42,624 nucleotides of DNA from a virus, in UHGV virus genome UHGV-0204464. The stretch is one strand, 5' to 3'. A model generated the notes under the pieces. It searched no databases. It saw only the letters and a list, made by a program, of their open reading frames with translations, and was not told the DNA's origin. Made by a program: the position numbers and the translations under genes. Shown piece by piece: positions 1 through 18,922 of this stretch (its first letter is position 1; each line of letters starts with the position of its first letter).

Positions 1-546
1 ATGTTAAGTGAAGATATTAGAGATGTAGTTGGTTATGAGGGGCTTTATGCGGTAACTCGTGATGGTAGAGTTTACTCTCACTCAAGGATAATAAATACAT
101 GCCATGGGGCTACTCGATTAATGAAGGGTAGATGGCTGAAGCCAGCAAAGGATGGGGGCGGATATCTATTTGTTGGTCTCTGTAAGGATGGAGAGGTTAA
201 ACCAAAAAAAATACATCGAATTGTTGCTGAGGCATTTATTGAAAACAAAGAATCTAAACCATTCATCAACCATATAGATAATAATAATCAAAATAATAAT
301 GTAGAAAATCTTGAATGGTGTACGCAACATGAAAACATGCAGCATTGCTCTAGAAGCGGTAGGGTGAAAATACCTCATTATGTGGGTTCTGAACATCCAT
401 CGTCCAAATTAAATGAAGATATAGTTCTGGTCATAAAAAATGATTTGATTACGCCAATTAGCGAGTTAGCTGCAAGATATAATGTGACTGTTCAGGCCAT
501 ACACGCCATTAAAAAAGGGAAGACATGGAGGCATGTGAATGGCTGA
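1..546 (+). CDS. HNH homing endonuclease (NUMOD4-like N-terminus, HNH core, C-terminal HTH-like tail)
   Basis: 181-aa ORF; motifs [16 protein letters not shown] and HINHIDNN...[10 protein letters not shown]; AAGGAG at 42614-42619 sits 5 nt upstream of the ATG at base 1 if the window is circular; AT-rich, low-complexity Asn run. Confidence 0.7.
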
Positions 547-1240
547 TCCCAATCTCAACGTGCCAGTAACTATCCAGGCCACCCGGCTAGACACATCAAT
601 CCTTCCACGCAATATATTCAGCCAGTCTTACCTGCTGTATGTCATTAATCAGGGGGCTGATGTCGGCGCAATTGCCGGGAAGGCAAATCAGGCTGGTCAG
701 GGCGCTTACGATGCTCAGGTGAAAAACGATGAACAGGACGTCGAACTGGCAGATCACGATTCAAGAATCACCGCAAACACAAAAGCGATAAATCTCCTTG
801 AGGTCAGGTTAACAACCGCCGAAGTGAAGATAGTCGTACTGCGTAGCGATGTTGATTACTTGCTGGATGAGGTTATCGATATTCAGGCGCATCTGGTCAC
901 TGTTGACAAAAGACTGGATGGCGTAGAAAGCGATGTATCTGACATTAAGAGTGATTACGTATCGAAAACCGTAACCAAATTGCAGTCTCTTGCGTCACCG
1001 CTGGATGTAAAAACATCATATTCAGTTGATGGAATTCAGGTTGTTGGAGCAAGAAATACCGGATGGACTGCAGCCACAGGTACACCTCTTCTTGGCTCAT
1101 TCAACGCTAACCAGTCATACACGGTCGGCACTACGTACACACAATCCGAAGTCGCAGCTCTCGCTACAGGTTTGGAGCAGGCGCGGCAGCGTATTCTGGC
1201 GCTTGAAACAGCACTTAGATTACATGGGCTGATTGACTGA
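539..1240 (+). CDS. Tail needle / cell-envelope-penetrating protein (P22 gp26-like)
   Basis: 233 aa, same length as P22 gp26; N-terminus [25 protein letters not shown] and C-terminus [19 protein letters not shown] match my memory of gp26; coiled-coil heptads; start overlaps the upstream stop. Confidence 0.8.
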
Positions 1241-1695
1241 TGATTACATTCAAACCAACACGAAACATCGACCTGATAGAAGCCGTGGGAAATCACCCTG
1301 ACATTATTGCCGGGAGCAACAACGGTGATGGATACGACTACAAGCCTGAATGCCGTTACTTTGAGGTTAACGTGCACGGACAGTTCGGCGGCATTGTTTA
1401 CTATCAGGAGATTCAGCCGCTGACATTCGATTGCCACGCCATGTACCTGCCAGAGATTCGCGGCTTCAGCAAGGAAATCGGGCTGGCGTTCTGGCGATAC
1501 ATTCTGACTAACACCACCGTTCAGTGCGTCACATCGTTCGCTGCGCGCAAATTCCGCCACGGTCAGATGTACTGCGCAATGATTGGCCTTAAGCGTGTAG
1601 GAACCATCAAGAAATACTTCAAAGGCGTGGATGACGTGACGTTTTACAGCGCCACACGTGAAGAACTAATCGACTTCCTGAATCACGGGAGATAG
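1240..1695 (+). CDS. P22 gp14-like DNA-ejection/assembly protein (by position)
   Basis: 151-aa ORF; start overlaps needle gene stop (ATGA); position between gp26-like and gp7-like genes. Confidence 0.5.
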   Translation: MITFKPTRNIDLIEAVGNHPDIIAGSNNGDGYDYKPECRYFEVNVHGQFGGIVYYQEIQPLTFDCHAMYLPEIRGFSKEIGLAFWRYILTNTTVQCVTSFAARKFRHGQMYCAMIGLKRVGTIKKYFKGVDDVTFYSATREELIDFLNHGR

Positions 1696-1697
1696 CC

Positions 1698-2387
1698 ATG
1701 TTATATGCATTTAAGCTGGGCAGAAAACTGCGCGGCGAGGAACCTTATTGCCCTGAAAAAGGCGGGAAAGGTGGCTCTGATAAAAGTGCAAAGTATGCCG
1801 CAGAAGCTCAGAAGTATGCCGCAGACCTGCAAAATCAGCAGTTCAATACCATCATGAACAACCTGAAGCCGTTTACTCCTCTGGCTGGGAAGTATGTCGG
1901 CAGCCTTGAGAACTTATCGTCTCTGGAAGGGCAAGGTCAGGCACTTAACCAGTATTACAACTCTCAGCAGTACAAAGATCTTGCTGGTCAGGCTCGCTAT
2001 CAGAGTCTGGCGGCAGCGGAAGCAACAGGTGGATTGGGTTCCACCGCAACCAGTAATCAGTTAGCAACAATCGCACCAACGCTTGGTCAGCAATGGCTAT
2101 CTGGACAAATGAACAATTACAACAACCTGGCAAATATCGGTCTTGGCGCTCTTCAGGGACAGGCAAACGCCGGGCAGACATATGCCAACAACATGAGCCA
2201 GATTTCACAGCAAAGCGCGGCTCTTGCAGCGGCAAACGCCAACCGACCGTCAGCATTGCGGCAGGGTGTTAGTGGTGCTGCATCCGGTGCGCTTTTGGGT
2301 GGTGGCATAGCCAGTGCTCTCGAGCTATCAACTCCGTGGGGTGCTGGTATCGGTGCTGGTCTTGGTCTGCTTGGCTCGTTGTTTTAA
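1698..2387 (+). CDS. Ejection (injection) protein, P22 gp7-like
   Basis: 229 aa (same as P22 gp7); Gln/Ala/Gly-rich with a Gly-rich hydrophobic C-terminus; synteny. Confidence 0.55.
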   Translation: MLYAFKLGRKLRGEEPYCPEKGGKGGSDKSAKYAAEAQKYAADLQNQQFNTIMNNLKPFTPLAGKYVGSLENLSSLEGQGQALNQYYNSQQYKDLAGQARYQSLAAAEATGGLGSTATSNQLATIAPTLGQQWLSGQMNNYNNLANIGLGALQGQANAGQTYANNMSQISQQSAALAAANANRPSALRQGVSGAASGALLGGGIASALELSTPWGAGIGAGLGLLGSLF

Positions 2388-2397
2388 GGGGTAATCA

Positions 2398-3849
2398 ATG
2401 GCTACGTGGCAACAGGGTATTAATTCTGGTGGTTTTCTGGCTGGCATCGGTACGCAAAATGAGAATGCGCCAAAGGCAAGCGACATTAACGCAACGCTTG
2501 GTCTGATTCGCGAAAACAATGAACTGGCTCGTTCAGGTGCAAATAACGTTGGTCTGACCGCGTTACGTGGTCTGGCTGGAGTTGCTGATATTTATAAGCA
2601 GCAGCAACAGCAGGAACGTAAAGCGGCATTCCAGAAAGGTTATGCGGATGCTTATGCGTCCGGCGACAGGGAGCAGATGCGTAATCTTATTACAGCATTC
2701 CCCGAAGAGTTTGAGGAAGTCCGTAAAGGCATGGGGTATGTCGATGACGCCCAGCGGAATGATTTTGGCAATCTGGCGCTCAAGGCTCAGGTAGCTTCGT
2801 CGCTTGGTCCGGGTGCATTTGGCAGGTTCATGATGGATAACGAAAAGGAGATGCGTCGTTTAGGTATCCCTCCAGAAACTATTGCGGAAATGCAGGTTAA
2901 TGACCCGCAGGGCTTCCAGCACTTCACAGGTAATCTGGCACTATTTTCTCTCGGTCATGAGAAGTATTTCGATATCAAAGATCAAATGGAAGGTCGGGAT
3001 ATTGAGCGTGGCAAGTTGGCAGAGACGATTCGCAGCAATAAAGCTGGGGAAGGTTTAAAGGCGCAAAGCATTGCTGTTAGCCGTGAAAACTCCCTGCGCA
3101 CTGCTGGAGGTGCTGTTCCTGCATCTGTTAAAGAATATCAATATTTCAACAGCCTGTCTCCAGAGCAACAAAAGACATATCTTCGTGTTCGAGGTCGTCC
3201 TGATGCTGGCGGGGAGAATGTTGTGCAACTGGCAGATGGCAGAACGGTAACGGTTGGTAGGAAGCTTCACGGCGCTGGTGCTAATGCGTTCTACGAAGGA
3301 ATAGACAACGAGGGCAATATGATTCGCGTCCCCGCAAGTTCTATTGCTGCTCCGGCTACATCGGCAGCTAATGCACAGAATTACGAAATGAAGAAAGATC
3401 TTGATGCAATTTCTGGCGCATCAATTGACGATCTTGGCTTCATGACAGGTATTACAGGTTCTTCAGGTTCTTTTGCTCTTGGTGCAGATATTCGTAGCAG
3501 GGCATCTGGTGTTGAGGAGAGGAGGCTATACAACGCTGCACAGCGAATCATGGGCAAAATGCAAAATCAGGGGATTGCAGCAGCCCGAGATATGGGGGCA
3601 TCTGGCATCAACACCGAAGCAGAGGCCAATAGGTATTTTCAGGGTATGCCAAAGCCTGATTTCTCAAGTCCTGAAGCGCTGCAACAATCAATGCGCGACA
3701 TTCAGCAATATACCGACAATTACAACCAGCAATATAACGTTAATGTTGGTAATGGCGGGAAGAAATCATCAAGGCAACAGTCAGCTACTCAGCAATCAGC
3801 AGGAGGTAGCTACACGTCAAAATCAGGCATTCAATTTACGGTGGAATGA
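2398..3849 (+). CDS. Ejection protein, P22 gp20-like
   Basis: 483-aa ORF in the gp20 position; RBS AAGGGG before the ATG. Confidence 0.55.
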
Positions 3850-5972
3850 TGAAAGTAACTGCAAACGGTAAGACATTTACCTTCCCTGATGGTACGAGCA
3901 CCGAAGATATTGGCACCGCCATTGATGAGTATTTTGCTGGTCAGGCTGTTCAGCAACAAACAGTTAATCAGGCCAATAATGCACCAACACAGGAAGAACC
4001 ATCATTGATGCAACAAGCTGGCGATTGGCTCACTGGTGGTCAAAGTGCAGGGCAAATTGCAGAACAGGCTGGTCGTGGTCTGGTAAACATACCATTTGAC
4101 GTATTACAGGGTGGCGCAAGTCTGATTAATGCAATCAGTCAGGGGCTTGGTGGGCCAAAAGTATTGGATGATGTCTATCGTCCAGTCGATCGACCGACAG
4201 ACCATTACGCGCAAGCCGGTGAAACAATTGGCGGGTATCTCCTGCCAATTGGTACAGCGGCAAAAGCTGCTGGAGCGCCAGCAAAGCTCGCTGGAGATAT
4301 CGGTTCCGCAGGAAACATGATTGCAGGCTCTCTTGCTGATGCTGCAAATCAGGAGGGCGATTTTGCACAAAATGCTGCCATTAACGGTGGTATCAATATT
4401 GGTGCTCAAGGCGTTATTTCAGGTGCCGGGCGCGTTATTGCGCCAAGGGTTTCACAGGCTCTTGGTGGTGCAGCACTGAATTCTGCTAATGATGTTTCCA
4501 GGATGGCAAAGTCAGATGCTGGGCGTCAGTCAATTGCCAGTCAGGCCGCTAATGTGTCCGAAGATGTAGCAAAAGCAGCTGAGTCTGCTGGAATTGATAT
4601 AAACGCATTAACACCAGGAATGCGATCTGGAAGTCGTGGAATTGCACAAGCCGAAGGCGCATTGGCATCAACACCTGGAATTGTTCAGGACGCCCATCAG
4701 GCAGCATTTAACGAAATATCATCAAAGTTAAGTCGAAACCTTGATGAATTTGGGGCCACATCTGGAACGGCATCAGAAAAAAGTGCGGCTATAAAACAAA
4801 GGATTCTTCAAAATCTTGATCAGATGAAGGATGCCGAGCGCGCGGCATGGGATGACGTGCGGTCAACAATGCCAAATCAAAAAGCAAGAATGCTAAATGG
4901 TAATGCCGTTATTCAGGCAGAGCGATCTGCTGGCATACCGCTTACTCCTGAAATGAAACAGTTTGTTCAGGCAAACAATCAAGGTGGAGTAACATTTGAT
5001 GGCATGAAAGCATGGAGAGCGAAATTTGCTGATGCGGAGCAAAAATATAAGCGTAGCGGAGAGGCAAATGCGGCAAGGAGAGCAGGGGAAATACGCCGGG
5101 CAATTACTGATGATATGCGCACAATGGCGGAAAACGGCGGATTTCTTGATGACTGGCAGAAAGCTAATGATCTGTCTAAAGCGAGGTTATCAGCACAAGA
5201 GAGTGCAGAGTCTGTTTTCGGGCGTGATTTGGCAACAGATGCACTGATTACGAATGGAGTAAAATCCCTTCAATCATCGTCAGCTAAAGGTCTTAATGGT
5301 CCTGCTGGATTCCATTCTATGATCCGCGCGCTGCCAGAATCAGAGCGTGTTCCTGCTATATCATCAATGTTGCAAGATGCTATCTCGCATGGTGTACGTG
5401 GTGGCAAAGCTGATGCAGCAGGAATTAACCATATCGCAGAGATACTGACTCCACAAAATGTAAAAGCCATTAGCCGATATTCCTCAGAGCTTGGAAGAAT
5501 TGCTGATGCATATGGCACTCTTGCAAGAGCAGCAGTGAAACCTCAGCAGTATATTGAAAGAACAGGTAGAACTGCCAATGTACTACGCGATCTGGATGCT
5601 GGTTTATCCAACGTCACATCAACAGTGTTAAATGCAATTGCCAATTCAACATCAGGTGCCATTGTTGGTGGCGCTGGAGGAGGCATTGCAGGCGCTGCCG
5701 CAGGTGCTTTAGTTGGCGCTGGGTTAAAAGGCGCTGTATCTAAAATTGCCACCACACGTAGTGGTCGGTATGCGATAGAGAAAGCAGTTCAGGAAGCAAC
5801 TAAAGCAGTAAGAGCAGGCGGAAGCAAAGAAGCATTAGCGGCGGCGGAACGCAGATTTATGGCAAATAAGGCCGCCGTAAAAGCAATACGCGAGGCACTA
5901 GGAAACGAAGAGTTCCAGCGTTTAGCAAGGGCTGGAATTGTGGCATCGCTAAGCGGAATGGCACAGGAGTAA
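3846..5972 (+). CDS. Ejection protein, P22 gp16-like (longer variant)
   Basis: 708-aa ORF overlapping the previous stop; Ala/Gly-rich with Gly-rich hydrophobic segments near the C-terminus; synteny. Confidence 0.55.
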
Positions 5973-6377
5973 TTAGTCATCCATGGATGGATTGAGCTTA
6001 TCTCGTGTTGATGTGGCAATTTTCCCAACATTTTTCAACCAAGATTTTAAGAAGGATATGTCGTCCTTAATATCATGAATATCCTCATTCTTTATACGAT
6101 CAACCTTATCCTCTAAGCTCTCTATAGAACGCTCAATGCTAGACAGAGAGATTTTTAAGTCCCCTTGCTCACGTTCCAGTGAGGATTTGAGAGCACAATA
6201 TTCGTTTTCTAGAATTCCTATTTTTTTTGTTAGAGAGTGCATTCGATACTCATACACCAAACCAGAAACGACTAATGCAGCCAACAGAAACCATTCAAGC
6301 ACACCAACCTCCTTAGTTTTGCGCAGGATACCAGATGATAATGTGTAGTTGGAGTAGCGCGGTTGTAATGCAAGCAT
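5973..6377 (-). CDS. Membrane-anchored coiled-coil protein; candidate superinfection-exclusion moron (sieA position)
   Basis: 134-aa ORF antisense to the late operon; one TM-like segment (LEWFLLAALVVSGLV) followed by a heptad-rich coiled coil; AT-rich; start codon uncertain. Confidence 0.45.
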   Translation of the reverse strand: MLALQPRYSNYTLSSGILRKTKEVGVLEWFLLAALVVSGLVYEYRMHSLTKKIGILENEYCALKSSLEREQGDLKISLSSIERSIESLEDKVDRIKNEDIHDIKDDISFLKSWLKNVGKIATSTRDKLNPSMDD

Positions 6378-6436
6378 TTTGTTTTGGTTTTATGCTTGCT
6401 TGTATGTGTGTACAGTGCATATAATGCAAGCATACA
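6364..6436 (+). promoter_or_regulatory. Candidate regulated promoter with three ATGCAAGCAT-type repeats
   Basis: Repeat copies at about 6367-6376, 6393-6401 (inverted) and 6424-6433; TATAAT at 6418-6423 with TTGCTTG about 17 bp upstream; directly upstream of the 6459 ATG. Confidence 0.35.
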
Positions 6437-6458
6437 TCACAACAAAGGTGCTTGCATT

Positions 6459-7451
6459 ATGACTGAAAAGAAAAGTGGCGAAGGGAAAGCTAAGGGCGGT
6501 ATCGCTCGCGCAAAGTCGCTGACTAAAGAGCAGCGTTCTGAAATAGCAAAGAAAGCAGCGGCTGCAAGATGGAAGGATAAACCATTAATTGCTACGCATA
6601 AGGGATCGTTCCAGCATGAATTCGGGATTGATGTTGAGTGCTATGTGTTAAATGATGATAACAAAACTGCCGTTATTAGCCAGAGAGGCATGGGAGAAGC
6701 GATTGGTCTTGGCGAAGGTGGCAGCAGGTTGCCAAAGTTTATTCAGGGGAAAACTATTTCTCAGTATATCGGGCATGAATTAAGGGCAAAACTTGAAAAT
6801 CCTCTTATTTTTCAATACAAACAGGCGGGCACGAACACTCCAGCTAATCCTGTAATACATGGCTACGATGTAACAATATTAATTGATTTATGTCGAGCAA
6901 TCTCTAATGCTAAAGCTGAAGGTAAGTTGCTTTCCAGTCAGGAAGGGATTGCTAAGCAAGCCAGAATCATTATTGATGCATCAGCCAAGGCGGGCATTCA
7001 GGGGCTTGTTTATGCTTTGGCAGGGTATGACAGAACAAAAGAAGAGGTAATTCAAGCATATAAGCGATATGTTGCTGAAGAGGCTCGTGAGTATGAAAGA
7101 GAGTTCACCCCTGAACTTTATGAGCATTGGTATCGTCTGTATGGTATAGACAAACCAGTTAGAGGGCGACCATGGGCGTTTAAATATCTTACGATAGATC
7201 ACATTTATTACCCATTAGCCAGAAGTGAAGGAAAGGTATTTAATTTAGCAAAAACGTCAAAAGAAGAAAAAGGCAGCAAGAACGATAAAATACACCAGTT
7301 TTTATCAGAGGTTGGAGTTAAGGCTCTTAGAACCCAAATAGGTAAGGTTACTGGTATTGCAATGGTTTCTGATACTCGAGAAGAGTATGAGAAATACATA
7401 GATGAAAAGGTTATTGGACAAAGAACCATAGACTTAAAAGATAAAGAATAA
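6459..7451 (+). CDS. Hypothetical protein with Lys/Arg-rich N-terminal DNA-binding-like segment
   Basis: Long ORF; most plausible ATG at 6459 (MTEKKSGEGKAKGGIARAKSLTKEQRSEIAKKAAAARW); the track ORF starts earlier at 6384. Confidence 0.6.
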   Translation: MTEKKSGEGKAKGGIARAKSLTKEQRSEIAKKAAAARWKDKPLIATHKGSFQHEFGIDVECYVLNDDNKTAVISQRGMGEAIGLGEGGSRLPKFIQGKTISQYIGHELRAKLENPLIFQYKQAGTNTPANPVIHGYDVTILIDLCRAISNAKAEGKLLSSQEGIAKQARIIIDASAKAGIQGLVYALAGYDRTKEEVIQAYKRYVAEEAREYEREFTPELYEHWYRLYGIDKPVRGRPWAFKYLTIDHIYYPLARSEGKVFNLAKTSKEEKGSKNDKIHQFLSEVGVKALRTQIGKVTGIAMVSDTREEYEKYIDEKVIGQRTIDLKDKE

Positions 7452-7452
7452 G

Positions 7453-7479
7453 AAAAACCCACCGTCAGGTGGGTTTTTT
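7453..7479. terminator. Bidirectional rho-independent terminator
   Basis: AAAAACCCACC-GTCA-GGTGGGTTTTTT: 7-bp GC-rich stem flanked by A-run and T-run; sits between convergent genes. Confidence 0.7.
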
Positions 7480-7504
7480 ATAAGGAGTAATCATGATTTA
7501 CCCA

Positions 7505-8041
7505 TCAAACAACCCACCAGTTTGCCTGATTGGATACCAGCCTTGCAGTTTTTATGGAATTAATTATGCCATGCTCAAGAGCCTTGTTAGCATCCAAAAT
7601 GGTCGAGTCTGCTATCAGGGATGCCCACCTAATATGGGTTCCGATGTCGATATTGAACGTCTCAACGAAGCGATCAAGATCGTTATCGAGGCATTTCCCG
7701 TACTCTCTCAATCTGGCATGGTCGGCGGCTGGGGAGGCAAAGCACCATAATAGAGGATGTAACAGGAATCTTGATAATGGGTTTGCGAAACGTTCTGAGC
7801 CAGCCAGGAAAACGATATTAGCTATGGATTCAACATTGCTTATGTTGTGAGTTCTAACGGTAACAGGGAGTGACTTAAGAAAGTTATACGCAGTAAAGCC
7901 AGCGGCTGTTTCCCCTCCCTGACTTGATATATGGATATTTAATTCAGTTGCGCCTTGAGATAATGCGGTGAGACAGTGGTTCTGAAGTTGCCCAACAGTG
8001 GCAGTGTTAACGGGGCATAAGAAATGAATTGTGTGCAGCAT
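7505..8041 (-). CDS. ClpP-like (S14 family) serine peptidase homologue, translationally coupled to mnt
   Basis: 178 aa; by-eye alignment to ClpP core (IHISSQGGETAAGF vs INSPGG.ITAG; candidate Ser in NVESIAN and His in LLHPL); ATG overlaps the mnt stop (TAATG). Confidence 0.5.
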   Translation of the reverse strand: MLHTIHFLCPVNTATVGQLQNHCLTALSQGATELNIHISSQGGETAAGFTAYNFLKSLPVTVRTHNISNVESIANIVFLAGSERFANPLSRFLLHPLLWCFASPAADHARLREYGKCLDNDLDRFVETFNIDIGTHIRWASLIADSTILDANKALEHGIINSIKTARLVSNQANWWVV

Positions 8042-8295
8042 TATTTATCATCCTTGCCATAAATCTTTTTAAGTGTCTCAAACACAACGGCCTTGAACTG
8101 CTCTGCTTGCTGATCAGCCAAGCGTTCAGCTTCGTCTCGATAGCCTGCAATCGGTGATGGCTTTGAGAGAGCATCCTGAACGATTTGTAATAACTCAGAG
8201 TTCATTGACCTTCCGTTAGCCTCTGCTCTTAATTTCAATTTTTCTCTTACTTCCAAAGGCATACGGAAGTTAAAGTGCGGATCGTTTCTAGCCAT
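8041..8295 (-). CDS. mnt: Mnt repressor (ribbon-helix-helix), P22 immI
   Basis: 84-aa ORF MARNDPHFNFRMPLEVREKLKLRAEANGRSMNSELLQIVQDALSK closely matches my memory of P22 Mnt; divergent from arc. Confidence 0.85.
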   Translation of the reverse strand: MARNDPHFNFRMPLEVREKLKLRAEANGRSMNSELLQIVQDALSKPSPIAGYRDEAERLADQQAEQFKAVVFETLKKIYGKDDK

Positions 8296-8317
8296 GCCAT
8301 CACCCCAAGTTAGTGTA

Positions 8318-8346
8318 TTGACATGATAGAAGCACTCTACTATATT
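8318..8346 (+). promoter_or_regulatory. Pant promoter with Arc operator
   Basis: TTGACA (8318-8323), 17-bp spacer, TATATT (8341-8346); the spacer holds ATGATAGAAGCACTCTACTAT (8323-8343), matching the P22 arc operator as I remember it. Confidence 0.75.
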
Positions 8347-8350
8347 CTCA

Positions 8351-8371
8351 ATAGGTCCACGGTGGACCTAT
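8351..8371. promoter_or_regulatory. Mnt operator (Omnt) palindrome
   Basis: Perfect palindrome ATAGGTCCACGGTGGACCTAT between mnt and arc. Confidence 0.75.
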
Positions 8372-8385
8372 ATTGTGAGGTAAAT

Positions 8386-8544
8386 ATGAAAGGAATGAGC
8401 AAAATGCCGCAGTTCAATTTGCGGTGGCCTAAAGAAGTATTGGATTTGGTGCGTAAGGTGGCGGAAGAGAACGGGCGATCTGTTAACTCTGAGATTTACA
8501 AGCGAGTGTTGGACAGCCTGAAGAGAGAGGGGATAACGGTATGA
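8386..8544 (+). CDS. arc: Arc repressor (ribbon-helix-helix)
   Basis: MKGMSKMPQFNLRWPKEVLDLVRKVAEENGRSVNSEIYKRVLDSLKREG matches P22 Arc; the track ORF (from 8323) begins inside the operator, so the internal ATG at 8386 is used. Confidence 0.85.
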   Translation: MKGMSKMPQFNLRWPKEVLDLVRKVAEENGRSVNSEIYKRVLDSLKREGITV

Positions 8545-8762
8545 GGTTTATTGAGGTTGATGAGATTGGCTATGAGAATGCACTTGGTAGAGGTAAATCT
8601 TTAGTTAACATTGATGGCATTGAATCGATAAGGAGTGGTGAATTTACGGAGATCAGAATGATGTCAGGCGGAATCATTCCTTGCCGTGATTCAGTAGAGT
8701 CAATCAAATCAAAAATGAGTGGTCAGTGGCTTTATAGCTACAGTGACTTACAAAAACAGTGA
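8541..8762 (+). CDS. Hypothetical 73-aa protein inserted between arc and ant
   Basis: ATG overlaps arc stop (ATGA); no recognisable motif; fills the arc-ant spacer. Confidence 0.4.
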   Translation: MRFIEVDEIGYENALGRGKSLVNIDGIESIRSGEFTEIRMMSGGIIPCRDSVESIKSKMSGQWLYSYSDLQKQ

Positions 8763-8825
8763 AGCCCCAACTGCGGGAACAGTCAGGGCTTCGGTATCGT
8801 AAAACCACGCATAGGAATTAACGAC

Positions 8826-9749
8826 ATGACGAGTGTAGCAATTGCAGAACATACAATCAACGTTCCATTCCACGGAACAAATCTCTTTTTGGTCAGCATT
8901 AACAATGAACCTTACGTTCCTATGAAACCCGTTGTAGAAGGCATGGGTATGGTTTGGGCTGCTCAATTTGTTAAATTAAAACAGAGATTTGTCAAAGGTA
9001 TTTCGGAAATCGAAATACCTTCTGCTGGCGGTAAACAGTTAATGATATGCCTTGCCTTTCGTAAGTTTGCGGCTTGGCTTTCAAGCATTCAGCCAAACAA
9101 AGTCCGCCCTGAAATCCGCGACAAGGTAATCCAGTATCAGGAAGAGTGTGACGATGTGCTCTACGAGTACTGGACTAAAGGCCATGTGGTTAATCCACGC
9201 AAAGCTAAAAAGGCGTTGCCGGGGAAAATCACTACTGAACAGCAGGAAGCCATTAAACAACTCGTCATGAGTCGCGGTCAGTCTCTGCCAAAAGAAAAAC
9301 AGGCTAAGGCGATGATCACCATGTGGTCGTCACTGAAATCCCATTTTGGATGTTCGTACAAAGAAATCAGTGAGGAGCAGTTTACAGAAGCACTGTCACT
9401 TGCAGCTCGAGTTCCACTTGAAGGTGAGTTCATTGGCAAACAAGAAGAGTTACCAGCGCCAAAACTGGATATTAACTTCCCGATTTCATGGTTTGCTGAA
9501 AATGCACCTTACGCCATTATCAGGCAGCAATGCGGTGATACTGTTGCTCTTGACCGCAGCGCACTCGTTGAATGCAGTCCGGCGTATAAACTAATCAATA
9601 TTCTGACAAAAGCGGGGTATGACGTTTCAGCAGTAAGAGCTGAACTAAAAGCACTTCGCCATTTAATGGCTGAGCAAAGCTGGGCACTTAAAGAGATAGC
9701 TTCATTCGCAGCGATACGTGATAGAGCGTGCCACTCAATTAAACTTTAA
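8826..9749 (+). CDS. ant: Antirepressor Ant
   Basis: 307 aa; N-terminal AntA/KilA-N-like segment; position after mnt/arc; AGGA RBS. Confidence 0.8.
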   Translation: MTSVAIAEHTINVPFHGTNLFLVSINNEPYVPMKPVVEGMGMVWAAQFVKLKQRFVKGISEIEIPSAGGKQLMICLAFRKFAAWLSSIQPNKVRPEIRDKVIQYQEECDDVLYEYWTKGHVVNPRKAKKALPGKITTEQQEAIKQLVMSRGQSLPKEKQAKAMITMWSSLKSHFGCSYKEISEEQFTEALSLAARVPLEGEFIGKQEELPAPKLDINFPISWFAENAPYAIIRQQCGDTVALDRSALVECSPAYKLINILTKAGYDVSAVRAELKALRHLMAEQSWALKEIASFAAIRDRACHSIKL

Positions 9750-9790
9750 CTACCTGCACGAAAAGTGTAGGTCAATAACCAACGCAACGA

Positions 9791-9813
9791 CCCAGCTTCG
9801 GCTGGGTTTTTTT
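9791..9813 (+). terminator. Rho-independent terminator after ant
   Basis: CCCAGC-TTCG-GCTGGG hairpin followed by TTTTTTT. Confidence 0.7.
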
Positions 9814-9871
9814 ATGCCCAAAATTCACCGTAGCCATGCTGCGGCGATTCCTTGTGTCTGGAGCAAATTAA

Positions 9872-12817
9872 ATGAGAGACATTACAGCCAATGTGATCGT
9901 ATCGATGCCTTCGCAACTCTTCACTATGGCGCGTTCTTTTAAAGCCGTAGCTAATGGCAAAATTTATATCGGTAAAATTGACACAGATCCTGTAAATCCA
10001 GAAAACCAGATTCAGGTCTATGTGGAGAATGAAGACGGTTCTCACGTTCCTGTTTCGCAACCAATAATCATTAACGCTGCTGGATATCCTGTATATAACG
10101 GACAGATTGCCAAATTCGTTACCGTGCAAGGCCATTCTATGGCTGTTTATGATGCGTATGGTGCGCAGCAGTTCTATTTTCCTAATGTGCTGAAGTATGA
10201 CCCTGATCAGTTACGGCAGCAATTAGAAGACCCAGATGGAGCGAATAAATACCCAAAACTTCAGATAGCAAGATGGAGAGACAGTTATGATGTAAGAGGT
10301 TGGGGGGCTATTGGTGATGGTGTTCATGATGATACATCAGCTCTATCAGAATTACTTTCTGTTGCAACAGGTGGTGAAAAGATAGATGGGCGAGGGCTTA
10401 CTTTTAAAGTATCAACTCTTCCAGATGTCAGTCGATTTAAAAATGCTCGTTTTTTATTTGAGAGAATACCGGGTCAGCCTCTTTTTTATGCTTCTGAAGA
10501 TTTTATCCAGGGAGAGTTATTTAAAATTACAGATACACCGTGGTACAACGCCTGGACGCAGGATAAAACGTTTGTATATGACAATGTCATCTATGCGCCT
10601 TTTATGGCTGGAGACCGCCATGGTGTAAATAACCTCCATGTTGCATGGGTTCGCTCAGGAGATGACGGGAAGACCTGGACAACGCCGGAATGGCTTACAG
10701 ATTTACATAAAAACTATCCCACAGTTAACTATCACTGCATGAGTATGGGGGTTGTCAGAAATCGCCTTTTTGCTGTAATTGAGACGCGGACCGTGAGAGG
10801 AAATAAACTGCAGGTTGCAGAGTTGTGGGATCGCCCAATGAGTCGCAGCCTTCGCGTTTATGGTGGTATAACGAAAGCAGCAAATCAGCAAGTCGCTTAT
10901 ATTCGCATTACTGATCACGGATTATTTGCTGGTGATTTTGTCAACTTCTCAAACTCTGGTGTTACAGATGTTACCGGGAATATGACGGTGACTACTGTTA
11001 TTGATAAAAATACCTTTACAGTTACGACGCAAAATACCCAGGATGTGGATCAGAATAACGAGGGTAGATACTGGAGTTTTGGTACATCATTTCACTCGTC
11101 ACCATGGAGAAAAACCAGTCTTGGAACTATTCCTTCTTTTGTTGACGGAAGCACTCCTGTTACTGAGATTCACAGTTTTGCGACGATTAGCGATAACAGT
11201 TTTGCTGTTGGCTACCATAATGGTGATATTGGTCCACGCGAGCTTGGGATACTCTATTTCTCTGATGCTTTCGGTTCTCCTGGTAGCTTTGTTCGCAGAC
11301 GCATACCTGCAGAATATGAGGCGAATGCATCTGAGCCATGTGTAAAATATTATGATGGCATTCTGTATCTGACGACCAGGGGGACATTAAGTACTCAACC
11401 CGGTAGTTCATTGCACAGAAGCTCTGATTTAGGTACATCATGGAATTCTCTTCGCTTCCCAAATAATGTTCATCACTCAAACCTTCCTTTTGCCAAAGTT
11501 GGCGATGAGCTGATTATTTTTGGCAGTGAGCGCACATTTGGTGAGTGGGAAGGAGGAGAACCTGATAACCGTTATGCAGGAAATTATCCAAGAACATTTA
11601 TGACCAGAGTTAACGTCAATGAGTGGAGTCTGGATAATGTAGAGTGGGTTAATGTTACTGATCAGATTTATCAGGGCGGAATAGTTAACTCTGCGGTTGG
11701 TGTTGGTTCAGTTTGTATCAAAGACAACTGGCTGTACTACATTTTCGGTGGGGAAGACTTTCTAAACCCATGGAGCATAGGGGATAACAACAGAAAATAT
11801 CCTTATGTTCACGATGGTCACCCGGCTGATTTGTATTGTTTCAGGGTGAAAATTAAACAGGAAGAATTTGTTTCAAGGGATTTTGTCTACGGAGCCACTC
11901 CTAACAGAACGCTTCCTACTTTTATGTCGACGTCAGGCGTGAGGACGGTTCCTGTACCCGTTGATTTCACAGATGATGTTGCCGTCCAGTCACTGACTGT
12001 CCATGCAGGTACATCAGGACAAGTTCGCGCGGAAGTCAAACTTGAGGGTAATTACGCCATTATTGCGAAGAAAGTACCGTCTGATGATGTTACCGCTCAG
12101 AGATTAATCGTTAGCGGCGGTGAAACAACGTCTTCAGCAGATGGTGCAATGATAACGTTGCATGGTTCCAGAAGCAGTACTCCACGTCGCGCGGTATATA
12201 ACGCACTCGAACATCTTTTTGAGAACGGAGATGTTAAACCTTATCTTGATAATGTAAATGCTCTTGGTGGTCCGGGAAACAGGTTCTCGACAGTTTATCT
12301 TGGCTCCAATCCTGTGGTTACCAGTGACGGAACATTAAAGACAGAGCCGGTCTCTCCTGACGAAACATTGCTGGATGCCTGGGGTGACGTCAGGTATATC
12401 GCTTATAAATGGCTGAACGCTGTCGCTATAAAGGGGGAAGAAGGGGCGAGGATACATCATGGTGTAATCGCGCAGCAACTTCGTGATGTTCTTATTTCTC
12501 ACGGACTCATGGAAGAAGAAAGCACAACATGCCGCTATGCGTTTCTTTGCTATGACGATTATCCCGCAGTATATGATGACGTCATTACTGGCCAAAGGGA
12601 AATGCCGCTGACTGATAATGACGGGAGCATCATTGTTGATGAGGATGATAATCCAGTGATGGTAATGGAAGACATCATTGAGCGCGTTGAAATAACGCCA
12701 GCAGGATCTAGATGGGGGGTCAGGCCTGATCTCTTATTCTATATCGAGGCGGCATGGCAGCGCAGAGAAATGGATAAGATAAAAGCTAGGTTAGACTTAA
12801 TAGAAGGGAAGCACTAA
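9872..12817 (+). CDS. Chimeric tailspike: P22-type head-binding N-terminus fused to sialidase/endosialidase-like domain with C-terminal autochaperone-like segment
   Basis: 981 aa; first ~115 aa ([45 protein letters not shown]) match the P22 gp9 N-terminus; Asp-box motifs SGDDGKTW and SSDLGTSW; C-terminal HHGVIAQQL region resembles endosialidase/T5 pb1-type intramolecular chaperone domains. Confidence 0.8.
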
Positions 12818-12962
12818 ATGTTTCGTTGGCGTCAAAAATATGAACTGCTCACATAAAGAAGTAAGTACATTGGCAAAAAACATTGACGTCAACGAAATTA
12901 AATATAAAACATCATGCAGACATATTACCAATATTAATATAAGGTAATAAAAATATAATTTA

Positions 12963-12990
12963 CAAAAAAGGCCCGTTGGAAGCGACGGGC
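12963..12990 (-). terminator. Candidate minus-strand rho-independent terminator
   Basis: GCCCGT..ACGGGC hairpin (12971-12990) with a T-run on the minus strand (plus AAAAAAG 12964-12970). Confidence 0.3.
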
Positions 12991-13244
12991 ATTAACCGCG
13001 GTAATGGATAAATTATTAATGTTTTTAGATTGTGAACGATATCATATTGTGCGGAAGTAGTGAAGTAACCATGTAAAATGATTGTTTCATAGCCTATGAG
13101 ACACACAAGGCTTTGTGCTCTTCGATAGTTGTTAAGGCGGATCACTCTACCTTCTCATCAATCCAGTCCGCCCCCACTGCATCATTTCTCTGCGCTTATC
13201 GAGATACTGAGCATGGTTGTAAATTCAACTAACCCAGTTCGTTG

Positions 13245-13290
13245 ACAAAAAATTAGCGCAAGAGGACAAAAAATCACCTTGCGCTAATGC
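13245..13290 (-). promoter_or_regulatory. sib/tI-like hairpin downstream of int
   Basis: TTGACAAAAAATTAGCGCAAG..CTTGCGCTAATGC long inverted repeat matching the lambda sib/tI region. Confidence 0.6.
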
Positions 13291-13530
13291 TCTGCCTCAG
13301 GTCACTAATACTATCTAAGTAGTTGATTCATAGTGACTGGATATGTTGTGTTTTGTAGTATTATGCAGTCTATTATTTAGACTAAATCCTTCATAACATA
13401 TTGATATTTACAGTGTTTTCTGTTTCTCGTTCAGCTTTTTTATACTAAGTTGGCATTATAAAAAAGCATTGCTTATCAATTTGTTGTAACGAACAGGTCA
13501 CTATCAGTCAAAATAAAATCATTATTTGAT
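13275..13530. other. attP (lambda type) with arm-type Int sites; core at 13434-13448
   Basis: Core GCTTTTTTATACTAA at 13434-13448; arm-type CAGGTCACTAT-like repeats in both arms; adjacent to int. Confidence 0.8.
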
Positions 13531-14592
13531 TTCAATTTTGTCCCACTCCCTGCCTCTGTCATCACGATACTGTGATGCCATGGTGTCCGACTTATGCCCG
13601 AGAAGATGTTGAGCAAACTTATCGCTTATCTGCTTCTCATAGAGTCTTGCAGACAAACTGCGCAACTCGTGAAAGGTAGGCGGATCCCCTTCGAAGGAAA
13701 GACCTGATGCTTTTCGTGCGCGCATAAAATACCTTGATACTGTGCCGGATGAAAGCGGTTCACGACGAGTAGATGCAATTATGGTTTCTCCGCCAAGAAT
13801 CTCTTTGCATTTATCAAGTGTTTCCTTCATTGATATCCCGAGAGCATCAACATGCAATGTTGTAGGGATGGCAATTTTTACGCCTGTTTTGCTTTGCTCG
13901 ACATAAAGATATCCATCTACGATATCAGACCACTTCATTTCGCATAAATCCCCAACTCGCTGCCCGGTAACAACAGCCAGTTCCATTGCAAGTCTGAGCC
14001 AACATGGTGATGATTCTGCTGCTTGATAAATTTTCAGGTATTCGTCAGCCGTAAGTCTTGATCTCCTTACCTCTGATTTTGCTGCGCGAGTGGCAGCGAC
14101 CGGGTTTGTTGTTATATGGCCTTCAGCTATTGCCTCTCGGAATGCATCGCTCAGTGTTGATCTGATTAACTTGGCTGACGCCGCCTTGCCCTCGTCTATG
14201 TATCCATTGAGCATTGCTGCAATTTCTTTTGTGGTGATGTCTTCAAGTGGAGCATCAGGCAGGCCCCTCCTTATTGCTTTAATTTTGCTCATGTAATTTA
14301 TGAGTGTCTTCTGCTTGATTCCTCTGCTGGCGAGGATTTTTTCGTAGCGATCAAGCCATGAATGTAACGTAACAGAATTATCACTGTTGATTCTCGCTGT
14401 CAGAGGCTTGTGTTTGTGTCCTGAAAATAACTCAATGTTGGCCTGTATAGCTTCAGTGATTGCTATCCTCCTGTCTCGGCCTAATCCAAACTCTTTACCC
14501 GTCCTTGGGTCCCTGTAGCAGTAATATCCATTGTTTCTTATATAAAGGTTAGGGGGTAAATCCCGGCGCTCATGACTTCGCCTTCTTCCCAT
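13522..14592 (-). CDS. int: Integrase (tyrosine recombinase), essentially lambda Int
   Basis: 356 aa; MGRRRSHERRDLPPNLYIRNNGYYCYRDPRTGKEFGLGRDRR... matches lambda Int along its length. Confidence 0.95.
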   Translation of the reverse strand: MGRRRSHERRDLPPNLYIRNNGYYCYRDPRTGKEFGLGRDRRIAITEAIQANIELFSGHKHKPLTARINSDNSVTLHSWLDRYEKILASRGIKQKTLINYMSKIKAIRRGLPDAPLEDITTKEIAAMLNGYIDEGKAASAKLIRSTLSDAFREAIAEGHITTNPVAATRAAKSEVRRSRLTADEYLKIYQAAESSPCWLRLAMELAVVTGQRVGDLCEMKWSDIVDGYLYVEQSKTGVKIAIPTTLHVDALGISMKETLDKCKEILGGETIIASTRREPLSSGTVSRYFMRARKASGLSFEGDPPTFHELRSLSARLYEKQISDKFAQHLLGHKSDTMASQYRDDRGREWDKIEIK

Positions 14593-14788
14593 TTCTGATC
14601 CTCTTCAAAAGGCTACCTGTTACTGGTCGATTTAAGTCAACCTTTACCGCTGATTCGTGGAACAGATACTCTCTTCCATCCTTAACCGGAGGAGGGAATA
14701 TCCTGCATTCGCGCACCCATCGACGAACTGTTTCAAGGCTTCTTGGGCGTCGCTGGCGTGCGTTCCACTCCTGAAGTGTCAAGTACAT
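14570..14788 (-). CDS. xis: Excisionase Xis
   Basis: MYLTLQEWNARQRRPRSLETVRRWVRECRIFPPPVKDGREYLF... (72 aa) matches lambda Xis; overlaps int start; track ORF extends upstream. Confidence 0.9.
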   Translation of the reverse strand: MYLTLQEWNARQRRPRSLETVRRWVRECRIFPPPVKDGREYLFHESAVKVDLNRPVTGSLLKRIRNGKKAKS

Positions 14789-14904
14789 CGCAAAGTCTCC
14801 GCAATTACACGCAAGAAAAGCCGCATTGATGCGGCAATGGTAGGTCTGGATATCATTGAGCAATGAACAGGCCTCATCGAGTGTGAGGCGGTGTTATTTC
14901 ATGG

Positions 14905-15249
14905 TTAGTCCTTGCGTAGCTCGCTGATTCTTCTGTAAGTCTCTGGTGCTTTGTTTCCGTGTATCTTCATTTCAAACTTCAACAGAGCAACGAGAGAATC
15001 CCATTCGTTGAGGATGCCTTTGAATGCCGGAACGCGCTTTGCAACCTTGTCGAATGAATCTCTGATTTCTGGAATCTGCTCAACAAGTGCAACGCATCGC
15101 CGGAAGTCTGCTGCGTCATGTGGAGCGCCGAAGTGATGACCATAGATATTTTTTTTCAGTCCACATGCGATTGAGGCAAGAGTTGCGCTACTGATGCCGA
15201 CATCGCCAGTTGATTGCCATTTCAAAACCTTCATAGCCAAATCTGACAT
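14905..15249 (-). CDS. Hypothetical early-left protein
   Basis: ORF with GGAGA RBS before the ATG at 15249 (MSDLAMKVLKW...). Confidence 0.5.
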   Translation of the reverse strand: MSDLAMKVLKWQSTGDVGISSATLASIACGLKKNIYGHHFGAPHDAADFRRCVALVEQIPEIRDSFDKVAKRVPAFKGILNEWDSLVALLKFEMKIHGNKAPETYRRISELRKD

Positions 15250-15275
15250 TTCTTGTCTCCAATAAAAAACCGCCA

Positions 15276-15443
15276 TCAGGCGTCTTGGTGTTCTTTCAGT
15301 TCTTCAATTCGAATATTGGTTACGTCTGCATGTGCTATCTGCGCCCATATCATCCAGTGGTTATAGCAGTCGTTGATGTCCTCTGCTTCGATAACCCTGT
15401 CGAATGGCTCTCCATTCCATTCACCTGTGACTCGGAAGTGCAT
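15276..15443 (-). CDS. Hypothetical small protein (55 aa)
   Basis: Hand-found ORF MHFRVTGEWNGEPF... with GGAG RBS 7 nt upstream; not in the supplied track. Confidence 0.3.
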   Translation of the reverse strand: MHFRVTGEWNGEPFDRVIEAEDINDCYNHWMIWAQIAHADVTNIRIEELKEHQDA

Positions 15444-15543
15444 TTATCATCTCCATAAAACAAAACTCGCCGTAGCGAGTTCAGATAAAAGAAATCCCCG
15501 CGAGTGCGAGGATTGTTATTCACCTTTGACGGCAAGTTGCAGG

Positions 15544-16167
15544 TTAGCCACGGTTAACCTCCTGCGGCGGTTCTGGTAGCGGCATCCAGAACAAGGCGTT
15601 CCCTAACCACGATAAAGTGCCGTCGCTCAACTCCACGTATTCCCCTTGTACCTGTCCTGCCATATACTCGCCGTGCTTTGAATAAATTAAAATCCAATCA
15701 TCTTGAGCGGGCATTCGCTCACTACAGCTTATCCAACCATCCGGAGTTACCGGATAGTTGCCGGGTTCTTTAATGTGCAAGCGAGGCTCACCATCTTTTG
15801 GTTCAGGCCACTGGCGCTCCATGTTGATCTTCAATTTATCTTCCATAGCAGCGGTAATTTCAGCATCGCTGATGCCAGCACGGCGCTGTGCATCCCACAA
15901 CAGGAAATGCATATCAGCCCACTCGCTGAGATCGTCTGGTTCGGCTGCGGCTTCCAGAGCCTCTTTTGAGAGGTGTTTCAGTGGACCAATGGGGCCAACG
16001 CAGCCAAATGTGGAGTCAGACCATTTGGCATGCTCGTGGCGAATCAGTTCGCGTTCCAGTGATGCCAGTGCAATTCGTGCCAGTTCCATTTGTTCGCCAC
16101 GAGTAAGCCCGTTTTCAAGCGGATTTTTAATGAACAATTCAATACGTTCTTTGGTAATAGTGGTCAT
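15544..16167 (-). CDS. Hypothetical protein, common lambdoid early-region family (possibly DUF550/DUF551-type)
   Basis: 207-aa ORF with AGGA RBS; family assignment from memory only. Confidence 0.55.
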   Translation of the reverse strand: MTTITKERIELFIKNPLENGLTRGEQMELARIALASLERELIRHEHAKWSDSTFGCVGPIGPLKHLSKEALEAAAEPDDLSEWADMHFLLWDAQRRAGISDAEITAAMEDKLKINMERQWPEPKDGEPRLHIKEPGNYPVTPDGWISCSERMPAQDDWILIYSKHGEYMAGQVQGEYVELSDGTLSWLGNALFWMPLPEPPQEVNRG

Positions 16168-16177
16168 TTGTTAGTCC

Positions 16178-16933
16178 TTAAACTGCTAGTTGCAATTGCA
16201 TTTCAAAGCGGTCGCGTTGTTCACAATACGCAAGAGAACCAGGGCTATTGTGTGCCTCAATCCGTTCTACCATTAATGCTGCTCGTGTCTCTTTACTTGC
16301 AGGTGCATAAGCCCCAGACCAGGCTTTATCAATACCGATGTTTCGAGCGACGTTCGTACTATCTGCGCTGGCTAAGGGTAATTTTGTGAATATCTGCGGA
16401 TTTAACATGCGCAATCCATGTAGTTTCGCAACCGGCTGACCATACTCATCAACAATGTGACGAATCAGGTCTTTCATTCTGGCTACCGCAAGAGTTGGGC
16501 GCTTTACGTCATAGTCGCCACAACTACCGATAGCCACTCGCGGAAACTCATTGCACAAATGAATAAATCGCTCGTCACTTTCATTCATGTGCCACACTGG
16601 AACGCCAGCTAGTTTTCCGTGAGGCCACTCATTCAGAAGCGCATCATTTTCTTCCTCTCCGCCATCAATAACATCAGGGATAATGGCAAAATCGAATCCT
16701 GGGTGATTCTTCCAGCGAGCAACAAACTCGTAGTAATCGCTCCAGTCGATTTTGTTTTTGCCAGCTGCTTTCCAGGCGGTGAATGCACCGTTGTCCAGCG
16801 CGAACGACTGACAGTATTCAGCCGCGAGATTGATCTGGCCTGAATGCGCAAAACTGATAAACGCATGTCGCCCTTTCCATGCTCTCATGGCGCACGTATC
16901 AGGAGTAATAGGCCCACCGTGATAGTGAATCAT
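16178..16933 (-). CDS. Hypothetical protein; possible tRNA-guanine-transglycosylase-like (DpdA-like) fold
   Basis: 251 aa from ATG at 16933 (coupled to upstream stop); LDNGAF segment resembles the TGT DSGGFQ motif; track ORF starts at an upstream TTG. Confidence 0.5.
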   Translation of the reverse strand: MIHYHGGPITPDTCAMRAWKGRHAFISFAHSGQINLAAEYCQSFALDNGAFTAWKAAGKNKIDWSDYYEFVARWKNHPGFDFAIIPDVIDGGEEENDALLNEWPHGKLAGVPVWHMNESDERFIHLCNEFPRVAIGSCGDYDVKRPTLAVARMKDLIRHIVDEYGQPVAKLHGLRMLNPQIFTKLPLASADSTNVARNIGIDKAWSGAYAPASKETRAALMVERIEAHNSPGSLAYCEQRDRFEMQLQLAV

Positions 16934-16934
16934 C

Positions 16935-17669
16935 TCACTCTCCTTTGATGCCAATGTTTACAGCCTGGCAAGCCTCTTTGAGCACCCAGTCAACAGCGTC
17001 TTTCCATGCTCCTGTTTCGACTGGCGGGTTCTCACGTTTTACCTGCTCATAAAAACGCACCGCTTTAATCAGTCCTTCAGGTACTACTGGCGATGGCTGT
17101 TTAGCTTCTAAATCAGCAATTCTGTCAACTACGGCATCTACTGCATCTGAAAAACCGAACCAGTTACTCCACTCAGGCCTATCCCCGGTTGCTGCAAAAT
17201 ACATATCAGCTAAAGCAGACTCAGCATGGTCACGCTCATTAATGAGTTGCTCTTCGCTTTTCTCCAGTTCAGCAATGCGCTTCTCTGCGGCCTCTGCCCT
17301 GCATTGTTCCCGTTGGAACATTTTGTGGGTGCGGTCGAGCGCCTCAAGTCTAGCTGCTGATGTTTTCTCTTCTGCTTCCAGCTCAACGCGCAGCTTCCCT
17401 ACCGTTAGCGCAATTTCCTCGTTCTCCTGGTCGCGGGATTTGATGTATTGCTGGTTCCTTTCCCGTTCATCCAGTAGTGCCAAAGCAATCTTTGGATTAA
17501 AGGCAGCAATAAATTCAGCGTTGTTTTTCAGAACGTGTTGCGCAATGGCCTGACTACTTAGTCGGACCTCATAACCACGTGCGCCACGGTGTGGTTTATA
17601 TGAGTCCCAGTCTCCCCACGTTGCTTTCTCTGCTTTTTCACGCAGTCCCTGATAGTCAATCTTGCTCAC
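16935..17669 (-). CDS. Ea22-like coiled-coil protein
   Basis: 244 aa with long central heptad/coiled-coil region (ELEAEEKTSAARLEALD...). Confidence 0.55.
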   Translation of the reverse strand: MSKIDYQGLREKAEKATWGDWDSYKPHRGARGYEVRLSSQAIAQHVLKNNAEFIAAFNPKIALALLDERERNQQYIKSRDQENEEIALTVGKLRVELEAEEKTSAARLEALDRTHKMFQREQCRAEAAEKRIAELEKSEEQLINERDHAESALADMYFAATGDRPEWSNWFGFSDAVDAVVDRIADLEAKQPSPVVPEGLIKAVRFYEQVKRENPPVETGAWKDAVDWVLKEACQAVNIGIKGE

Positions 17670-18431: not shown

Positions 18432-18592
18432 TTCTTCCCACTCCGCAACATCGCATTCAGATATTTGTTTTGATTCACTGACGGAAAAGAATTTCTCTTT
18501 AGCAATTCCTCTCTCGATGGCATTGGCTTTACGCGTTGGCGAATAATCATTTCTGCCGGAAGAATGCCTGGGTTGTATGCAAGTCCTCTCAT
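18428..18592 (-). CDS. Hypothetical small protein
   Basis: In-frame ATG at 18592 ([12 protein letters not shown]...) just after the stop of the 18603-18899 gene; the longer track ORF would overlap that gene. Confidence 0.3.
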
Positions 18593-18602
18593 GGTAAATT
18601 CC

Positions 18603-18899: not shown

Positions 18900-18922
18900 A
18901 ATGGGAGCCTTATTTTCAGTAA

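Follow-up and report, generated by a model that had tools for sequence, protein, structure and literature searches.

The Unified Human Gut Virome (UHGV) genome UHGV-0204464, a stretch of 42,624 nucleotides (nt) from a P22-like temperate coliphage that is referred to below in its entirety as the window, begins with an open reading frame (ORF) for an HNH protein, located between the structural genes 10 and 26. We consider it likely that this ORF is a free-standing, I-HmuI-like HNH homing endonuclease gene residing within a mobile cassette of about 0.9 kb, and that the recoded flank of this cassette probably provides self-immunity. The ORF (1..546, + strand, as are all features of the locus) starts with ATG and encodes 181 amino acids (aa). 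It is preceded by gene 10 (41185..42603), which codes for the tail hub or 'packaged DNA stabilisation' protein and whose 472-aa product is spanned entirely by PF11134 (E 2.4e-280). It is followed by the gene of the tail needle gp26 (539..1240; phrog_1219, E 2.6e-111), whose identity to its counterparts in HK620, CUS-3 and related phages is 92-96%. Genes 10 and 26 are both uninterrupted ORFs.

This arrangement had been proposed in an original prediction made from the letters alone, and the Pfam, PHROG and neighbour matches agree with the 181-aa HNH endonuclease that it placed between a gp10-like gene and the needle gene. Its statement that gene 10 of P22 is directly followed by gene 26 was also correct: the former ends at 8206 and the latter starts at 8210, without insert, and in HK620 and the prophage AR_0017 the two genes likewise adjoin, overlapping by 1 nt. 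The gene-10 stop is separated from the HNH start by a leader of 21 nt (42604..42624), whose Shine-Dalgarno sequence AAGGAG (42614-42619) ends 5 nt before the window end, at the far 3' position where a ribosome-binding site (RBS) had been predicted. At the other end, the HNH stop codon TGA (544-546) lies inside the needle ORF (ATG at 539-541), giving the expected overlap, here of 8 nt. Four Escherichia coli prophages (KE40, AF46, NRZ105822 and PEC011) are contiguous and identical over the window end and start. Since they read through this junction, the window represents a complete P22-like temperate genome in circularly permuted form, as the predicted circular contiguity implied.

The protein comprises a NUMOD4 domain (PF07463; aa 7-60, nt 19-180; 34.4 bits for a cut-off of 23.4), an HNH_3 domain (PF13392; aa 70-114, nt 208-342; 35.2 bits for a cut-off of 24.8) and a C-terminal helix-turn-helix (aa 153-171, nt 457-513). 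Its best PHROG is phrog_59 'HNH endonuclease' (E 2.9e-52), and its sole sequence match in the PDB is I-HmuI (1u3e, E 5e-12). Residues N90-H91 (nt 268-273), N103 (nt 307-309) and N112 (nt 334-336) align with D74-H75, N87 and N96 of I-HmuI, position 90 being Asn where I-HmuI has Asp. The original prediction had allowed that the catalytic His and Asn might be missing on proper alignment; they are present, the His being the general base and the Asn residues structural and metal-binding, and N90, H91, N103 and N112 are invariant in alignments of 32 and of 52 homologues. An AlphaFold (AF2) model based on the 52 homologues reached a predicted local distance difference test score (pLDDT) of 90.3, with beta-strands across residues 6-70. 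Compared with the PDB by Foldseek, this model matched 1u3e over its full length (182 columns, 26% identity, E 6.7e-9, probability 1.00, template modelling (TM) scores 0.56/0.58), which is the only significant fold match, as the runner-up had an E value of 0.09. By domain architecture, catalytic residues and modelled fold, the protein is thus an I-HmuI-type HNH endonuclease with a predicted cutting activity.

Comparison of the ORF with an allele 86% identical gave a proportion of non-synonymous differences (pN) of 0.09 and of synonymous differences (pS) of 0.70, corresponding to a ratio of non-synonymous to synonymous divergence (dN/dS) of about 0.05. The low pN relative to pS indicates that the ORF is functional rather than decaying, and it is under purifying selection. 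An identical protein is already public as 'HNH endonuclease [Escherichia coli]' (WP_042048397.1) and is found on about 500 contigs.

The G+C content (GC) of the HNH ORF is 0.38, while that of the structural genes on either side is 0.50-0.55 and that of the whole window 0.465. The markedly lower GC that had been predicted for this gene is therefore observed, but it is not confined to 1..546. GC drops from about 0.52 to 0.33-0.40 from about 42300 on, within gene 10, and the low-GC block starts at 42315. Over its 856 nt (42315..546) the GC is 0.369, which is under the 5th percentile (0.403) of 900-nt windows; equally low values are found elsewhere only in a non-coding stretch near 12.7 kb. Two parts can thus be told apart in gene 10: the backbone part (codons 1-376, 41185..42314, GC 0.52), which would serve as left homology arm, and a divergent AT-rich substitute for the final 96 codons (42315..42603, GC 0.36), hereafter the recoded tail, which we propose to be the self-immunity segment. 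When aligned codon by codon with its HK620 counterpart, gene 10 is 88-98% identical in nucleotides and about 100% identical in amino acids up to nt ~1100; the corresponding values over the final ~96 codons are 45-62% and 45-75%. Identity of the recoded tail to the tails of gene-less phages is about 55-63% in nucleotides and about 63% in amino acids, and its GC of 0.36 compares with 0.49 in HK620 and AR_0017.

The near-isogenic prophage AR_0017, which lacks the HNH gene, delimits the exchanged segment. Only 1 difference separates it from the window over 40685..42314. The similarity breaks abruptly at 42314|42315, and the DNA is unrelated through the remainder of gene 10 and the HNH ORF. In the needle gene, 14 differences in 548..592 are followed by 1 over 593..860. 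The comparison of this junction with insert-free relatives, advised in the original prediction, thus showed that the gene is absent from P22, HK620 and AR_0017 and that the borders are sharp. Judged by these alignments, about 0.9 kb moves as one replacement cassette, made of the divergent gene-10 tail, the 21-nt leader and the HNH ORF, and co-converted to about 592-603. The needle 5' end imported with it (539..603) would hold the right recombination end point (593-603). The notion that an endonuclease has invaded the structural operon is supported, but not that of a simple insertion between intact genes, because the last 96 codons of gene 10 were also replaced.

In order to determine how regularly the recoded tail accompanies the endonuclease, we compared 15 occupied loci, namely the window, the prophages KE40, AF46, NRZ105822, PEC011, O111:H- 11128, SBF22, CUVM3 and A39, phage HZ41 and the metagenomic contigs L013-L017, with 4 empty ones (P22, HK620, AR_0017 and AF14). 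An AT-rich tail (GC 0.35-0.40) is found in 15/15 occupied loci, whereas the composition is ordinary in 4/4 empty loci. The site position and the 21-nt spacer are also the same in all 15 occupied loci. The tail begins at or near the same codon, after QQEH; in the O111-type allele, low-GC sequence begins about 33 nt further upstream. Relative to the window, L013, L014 and L016 have gene-10 bodies of 67-73% nucleotide identity, with tails of 75-81% and HNH genes of 74-78%. Between L017 and HZ41, the synonymous divergence (dS) is about 1 in the gene-10 body and 0.17 in the tail. As the gene-10 body is more diverged than the tail in these four contigs, the tail was inherited with the cassette and not with the backbone.

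Within this tail, the segment 42361-42420 contains the perfectly identical runs GACCTTGAATTAGA, GTGTGTG and ATATTTATATC across cassettes that are otherwise saturated at synonymous sites. They include an extended -10-like motif, TGnTAGAAT, which was spotted by eye at 42393-42401 and was not called by a consensus promoter scan. This conservation could mark a protein-binding site or an internal promoter.

Occupancy of the site is sporadic. Of 5,426 complete E. coli genomes, 920 have gene 10, and HNH alleles at the site were counted in about 56 of these 920 (4 of the window type, 16 full-length of the HZ41 type and 36 of the O111 type). This occupancy of about 6% is a lower bound, because there may be further alleles. 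The phage records that matched gene 10 numbered 126, and only one of them, HZ41, shows the arrangement. The HZ41-type allele is also found in Salmonella enterica and Klebsiella aerogenes. The gene is thus far from universal among relatives, and its composition is not host-like, contrary to the alternative that the original prediction had put forward against itself. An exact scan for the conserved leader in contigs of representative genomes gave 0 matches. Profile scans of the representative genome contigs and of IMG/VR retrieved only distant relatives (at most 53% identity over partial segments), mostly from Firmicutes and other low-GC taxa, which fits a low-GC origin of the HNH family and is uninformative on the cassette.

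A recent transfer can be reconstructed from the closest loci. The cassette (42304..588/603) is 100% identical in KE40, AF46 and NRZ105822, and differs by one substitution (at 348) in PEC011; identity with the donor-like KE40 and PEC011 extends as far as 603. The backbones of those prophages diverge by 5-10% or more, their gene-10 bodies show 3-10 differences per 100 nt from the window, and the capsid module of NRZ105822 is unrelated. The window looks like an AR_0017-type genome that took up a KE40/PEC011-type patch, with apparent crossovers between 42283/42304 and 42314 on the left and between 593 and 603 on the right. Next to this end point, positions 604-676 of the needle gene form a 73-nt patch with 28 differences from KE40, AF46 and PEC011, both sides being identical; NRZ105822 and AR_0017 match the window there. 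This segment reads as a small mosaic patch in the N-terminal region of the needle.

Such mosaicism raises the question of whether the nuclease plays any part in the spread of the cassette. The low-GC tail and the HNH gene might have entered once from a low-GC relative and then spread by general homologous recombination, as passengers in an ordinary mosaic module. The mosaicism visible in the capsid and scaffold modules and in the needle patch 604-676 speaks for this view, and the flanking genes 26-14-7-20, nearly identical among many prophages, offer ample homology. However, a useless gene would decay, yet the dN/dS is very low and the catalytic residues are invariant. The same exact position is occupied in backbones whose gene 10 is only 67-73% identical, and the converted patch is minimal and centred on the HNH gene, with 1 nt of difference from the gene-less genome on each side. 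In addition, a related HNH gene at the other end of gene 10, described below, shows the same design of bringing its own gene-10 end. We therefore regard mere passenger status as unlikely.

The site harbours several endonuclease alleles. Relatives 48-86% identical to the window gene lie at the exact same position in diverged P22-like contigs with four needle types. HZ41 (L002), O111:H- 11128 (L004), L005 and L013-L017 together provide at least 3-4 strongly diverged HNH alleles, whose proteins share 47-86% aa identity with that of the window, the window protein being 58% identical to the HZ41 type, 47% to the O111 type and 50% to L017. HZ41 and O111 differ by a dS of 0.17 in the tail and by a pN of 0.31 in the HNH gene. 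Because the tails are close while the HNH ORFs are saturated, the HNH ORF has been exchanged independently of the tail.

At least three alleles of 47-58% aa identity at the same site, beside nearly the same tail, are the pattern expected of competing endonucleases. The enzyme might accordingly act chiefly to the advantage of its own phage or lysogen, by harming related P22-like genomes that enter the same cell through co-infection or superinfection, including carriers of other alleles. The spread of the cassette would then be a by-product. Marker exclusion by the intron endonucleases of the HMU phages is documented (PMC2988022), and the protein belongs to the I-HmuI family. This view nevertheless presumes that the enzyme of one allele cuts the DNA of another, and the gene lies in a late operon for which a consensus scan found no promoter active in the lysogen. 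We hold a primary role in exclusion to be improbable; it overlaps mechanistically with homing and does not exclude it.

The signals surrounding the ORF were then considered. The leader AAATCGAAAC-N3-AGGAGTAGAT-ATG is invariant except at 3 positions across all alleles, and it is also found 5' of the related HNH gene of phage UPF_BP1, at a different site. The HNH 3' end TGGAGGCATGTNAATGG is kept in all alleles at the site, where gene-less phages carry AAGGATTGAGTAATGG. It includes a GGAGG (527..531) 7 nt ahead of the needle ATG, a putative Shine-Dalgarno sequence that would replace the one otherwise supplied to the needle gene by the gene-10 3' end.

Several other modes of residence or expression were considered and rejected. 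An intron or intein is not indicated: at the gathering threshold, Rfam matched only the sar RNA and the lambda CIII thermoregulator over the whole window, and the gene-10 ORF is continuous. In KE40, where the junction is contiguous, a permissive Rfam search over it (E up to 1) gave no match either. The gene is likewise not that of a group I intron-encoded endonuclease, as no intron model matched and genes 10 and 26 are uninterrupted. Translational control by an RBS hairpin, as for some T4 endonucleases, was discarded since the 111-nt fold around the start has a z-score of +0.94, no better than shuffled sequences. A consensus scan for sigma-70 promoters and terminators found none on the + strand of KE40 positions 3300-4900. 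Since no intron, RBS hairpin, consensus promoter or terminator was found, the HNH gene appears to act as a promoter-less cassette of the late operon.

HNH proteins encoded among the structural genes of some siphoviruses serve packaging, and the protein could in principle be a terminase accessory needed for DNA packaging, as in HK97-like cos phages. P22-like phages, however, package their DNA by a headful mechanism. The gene is absent from about 94% of the P22-like gene clusters of E. coli, as well as from P22, HK620, Sf6 and AR_0017; it lies about 6.6 kb away from the gene of the large terminase TerL (34620..36035), and its family is NUMOD4 plus HNH_3, I-HmuI-like. Its distribution, family and location thus lead us to reject a packaging function, to which we give practically no credence.

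We propose the following scheme for homing. The HNH gene would be transcribed within the late structural operon. When a carrier phage or prophage meets a related P22-like genome without the cassette, as during co-replication, the enzyme would nick or cut that genome at a conserved sequence located within the 3' part of its gene 10 or next to it. Recombinational repair from the carrier would then copy the entire heterologous block into the broken genome. Carriers would be protected because the recoded tail, which diverges by 37-45% in nucleotides, no longer contains the target, and a functional gp10 would still be made. As to the cut site, we mildly favour a position near the left boundary over the gene 10/26 junction, because left co-conversion appears limited to at most 11-32 nt, compared with 55-65 nt past the needle start on the right. 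It would lie at about codon 377, where gene-less phages read GAACA|CCTGCTGTTTAC.

Several considerations weigh against this scheme. We infer cleavage and homing from the anatomy of the locus and from the population pattern. The left-boundary proposal draws on one reconstructed event, and the true donor may be another than the prophages named for it. Given the high mosaicism of P22-like phages, identical patches in different backbones could also arise by ordinary homologous recombination; near identity among these prophages extends to the genes downstream of the cassette as well. One ancestral recombination could moreover have left all loci with the same left boundary, since a tail of 55-63% nucleotide identity cannot recombine with the resident one. 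I-HmuI, a nickase, also cuts the intron-containing DNA that encodes it, and immunity through a recoded tail is thus not guaranteed. Finally, the donor lineage of the low-GC tail was not found: a tblastn search with the 102-aa tail against 50,697 phage records returned nothing closer than 68%, except HZ41.

The closest characterized enzymes are I-HmuI and I-HmuII of the Bacillus phages SPO1 and SP82. I-HmuI (1u3e) is similar in size (174 aa, compared with 181 aa here) and shares the three-part architecture, with an N-terminal beta-sheet NUMOD4, the HNH motif and a C-terminal helix-turn-helix, as well as the His/Asn/Asn catalytic residues. The divergent alleles found here at one site recall the competition between I-HmuI and I-HmuII (PMC2988022). 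In contrast to the window gene, which lies without intron in the structural operon of a temperate podovirus of Gram-negative bacteria, that of I-HmuI resides within a group I intron of a DNA polymerase gene.

The anatomy of the locus is closer to the 'intronless homing' of T4. Free-standing T4 endonucleases are promoter-less cassettes in polycistronic messages, which cut hundreds of base pairs from their own gene and co-convert the flanks (PMC2988022). MobE, SegF and SegG resemble the present case as promoter-less ORFs between conserved operon genes, with neighbour overlap, co-converted flanks and sporadic occurrence (PMC2988022). SegF and SegG belong to the GIY-YIG type, MobE to the HNH type. 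The present host differs, being a temperate P22-like phage mostly encountered as a prophage, and so do the flanks: instead of a few polymorphisms, 96 codons are recoded wholesale here, with a nucleotide divergence of about 40-45%. A further parallel comes from ICP1 and other phages, where nuclease genes mark recombination boundaries (Barth et al. 2023, PMC10448857): a homing endonuclease gene stands beside an essential structural gene at the boundary between high and low nucleotide identity. That study describes an 'HEG island' of more than 10 kb, compared with a tract of less than 1 kb here, and stresses the T5orf172 and IPA-HNH types, from which the present family differs.

A mirror image of the cassette is found in the Salmonella phage UPF_BP1 (L001, KX776161). 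Its HNH protein (SPUPF_00057) is 46% identical in amino acids to that of the window, and its gene has the same leader, AAATCGAAAC..AGGAGTAGAT. Like the window gene, it lies at gene 10 and comes with a recoded substitute for the gene-10 end that it displaces. It differs in that the insertion lies at the gene-10 5' end, after codon 31, between genes 4 and 10, and in that the C-terminal DNA-binding region of the protein is unrelated to that of the window (16-23% identity). The original codons 1-31 of gene 10 are kept as a truncated remnant (L001 2001-2092) overlapping gene 4, and the recoded, lower-GC codons 1-31 start at L001 2674, inside the HNH 3' end and in another frame. The gene-10 start given in GenBank (L001 2782) is probably annotated too far downstream. 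Besides, several records of Salmonella P22-like phages, such as KR296688 (phage 34) and MK972692 (SE21), carry two 'DNA stabilization protein' features per gene-10 match, which may reflect a split or frameshifted gene 10 in these annotations.

Other features of the window were noted. The genome also encodes Ant, a tailspike, an integrase, TerL, a portal protein and two RNA elements found by Rfam, the sar antisense RNA (8758-8824, - strand, 76.6 bits) and the lambda CIII thermoregulator (20582-20640, - strand, 88.5 bits); both RNAs fit a complete temperate genome of the P22-like/lambdoid type. The roughly 700 nt (12818-13521) that separate the tailspike gene (9872..12817) from the integrase gene (13522..14592, - strand) contain no ORF longer than 61 aa and have the lowest GC of the window, about 0.37; this segment presumably contains attP. 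In the immI/antirepressor region, on the opposite strand and far from the head genes, a 178-aa ORF (7505-8041, - strand) matches head-maturation-protease PHROGs (phrog_94, E 7e-21) and may be a moron or a gene fragment.

A full-text literature search returned no paper on an endonuclease at the gene 10/26 junction; a key comparison of P22-like virion genes was outside this search, and a prior description is possible. The cassette is a real, well-supported and uncharacterised case of a free-standing homing endonuclease, unsurprising to a specialist and directly testable. Homing endonucleases are well studied in lytic T4-like phages and barely so in temperate phages that live mostly as prophages. 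The P22/HK620/Sf6 group offers a compact and tractable system in this respect: the cassette is defined and measures 0.9 kb, empty and occupied alleles occur naturally in near-isogenic form, several divergent endonuclease alleles share one site, and a mirror-image relative lies at the opposite end of the same essential gene. Such a system would lend itself to testing by what means free-standing endonucleases spare their own genome and to what extent they shape the mosaic boundaries of virion genes. Phylogenies of gp10 should allow for the cassette, because the final 96 codons of carriers belong to a different lineage than the rest of the gene.

A broader and more tentative reading, which we put forward as possible though doubtful, is that of a self-immunising homing unit. 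The enzyme would target an essential structural gene and would always carry a recoded functional substitute for the stretch of that gene from the cut site to its own insertion point. Related enzymes would have applied this design twice to gene 10, at the 3' end here and at the 5' end in UPF_BP1. The 47-58%-identical alleles beside one tail would then reflect an ongoing competition with ORF replacement. If this were true, homing endonucleases would be a measurable driver of virion-gene mosaicism in temperate enterobacterial phages and prophages.

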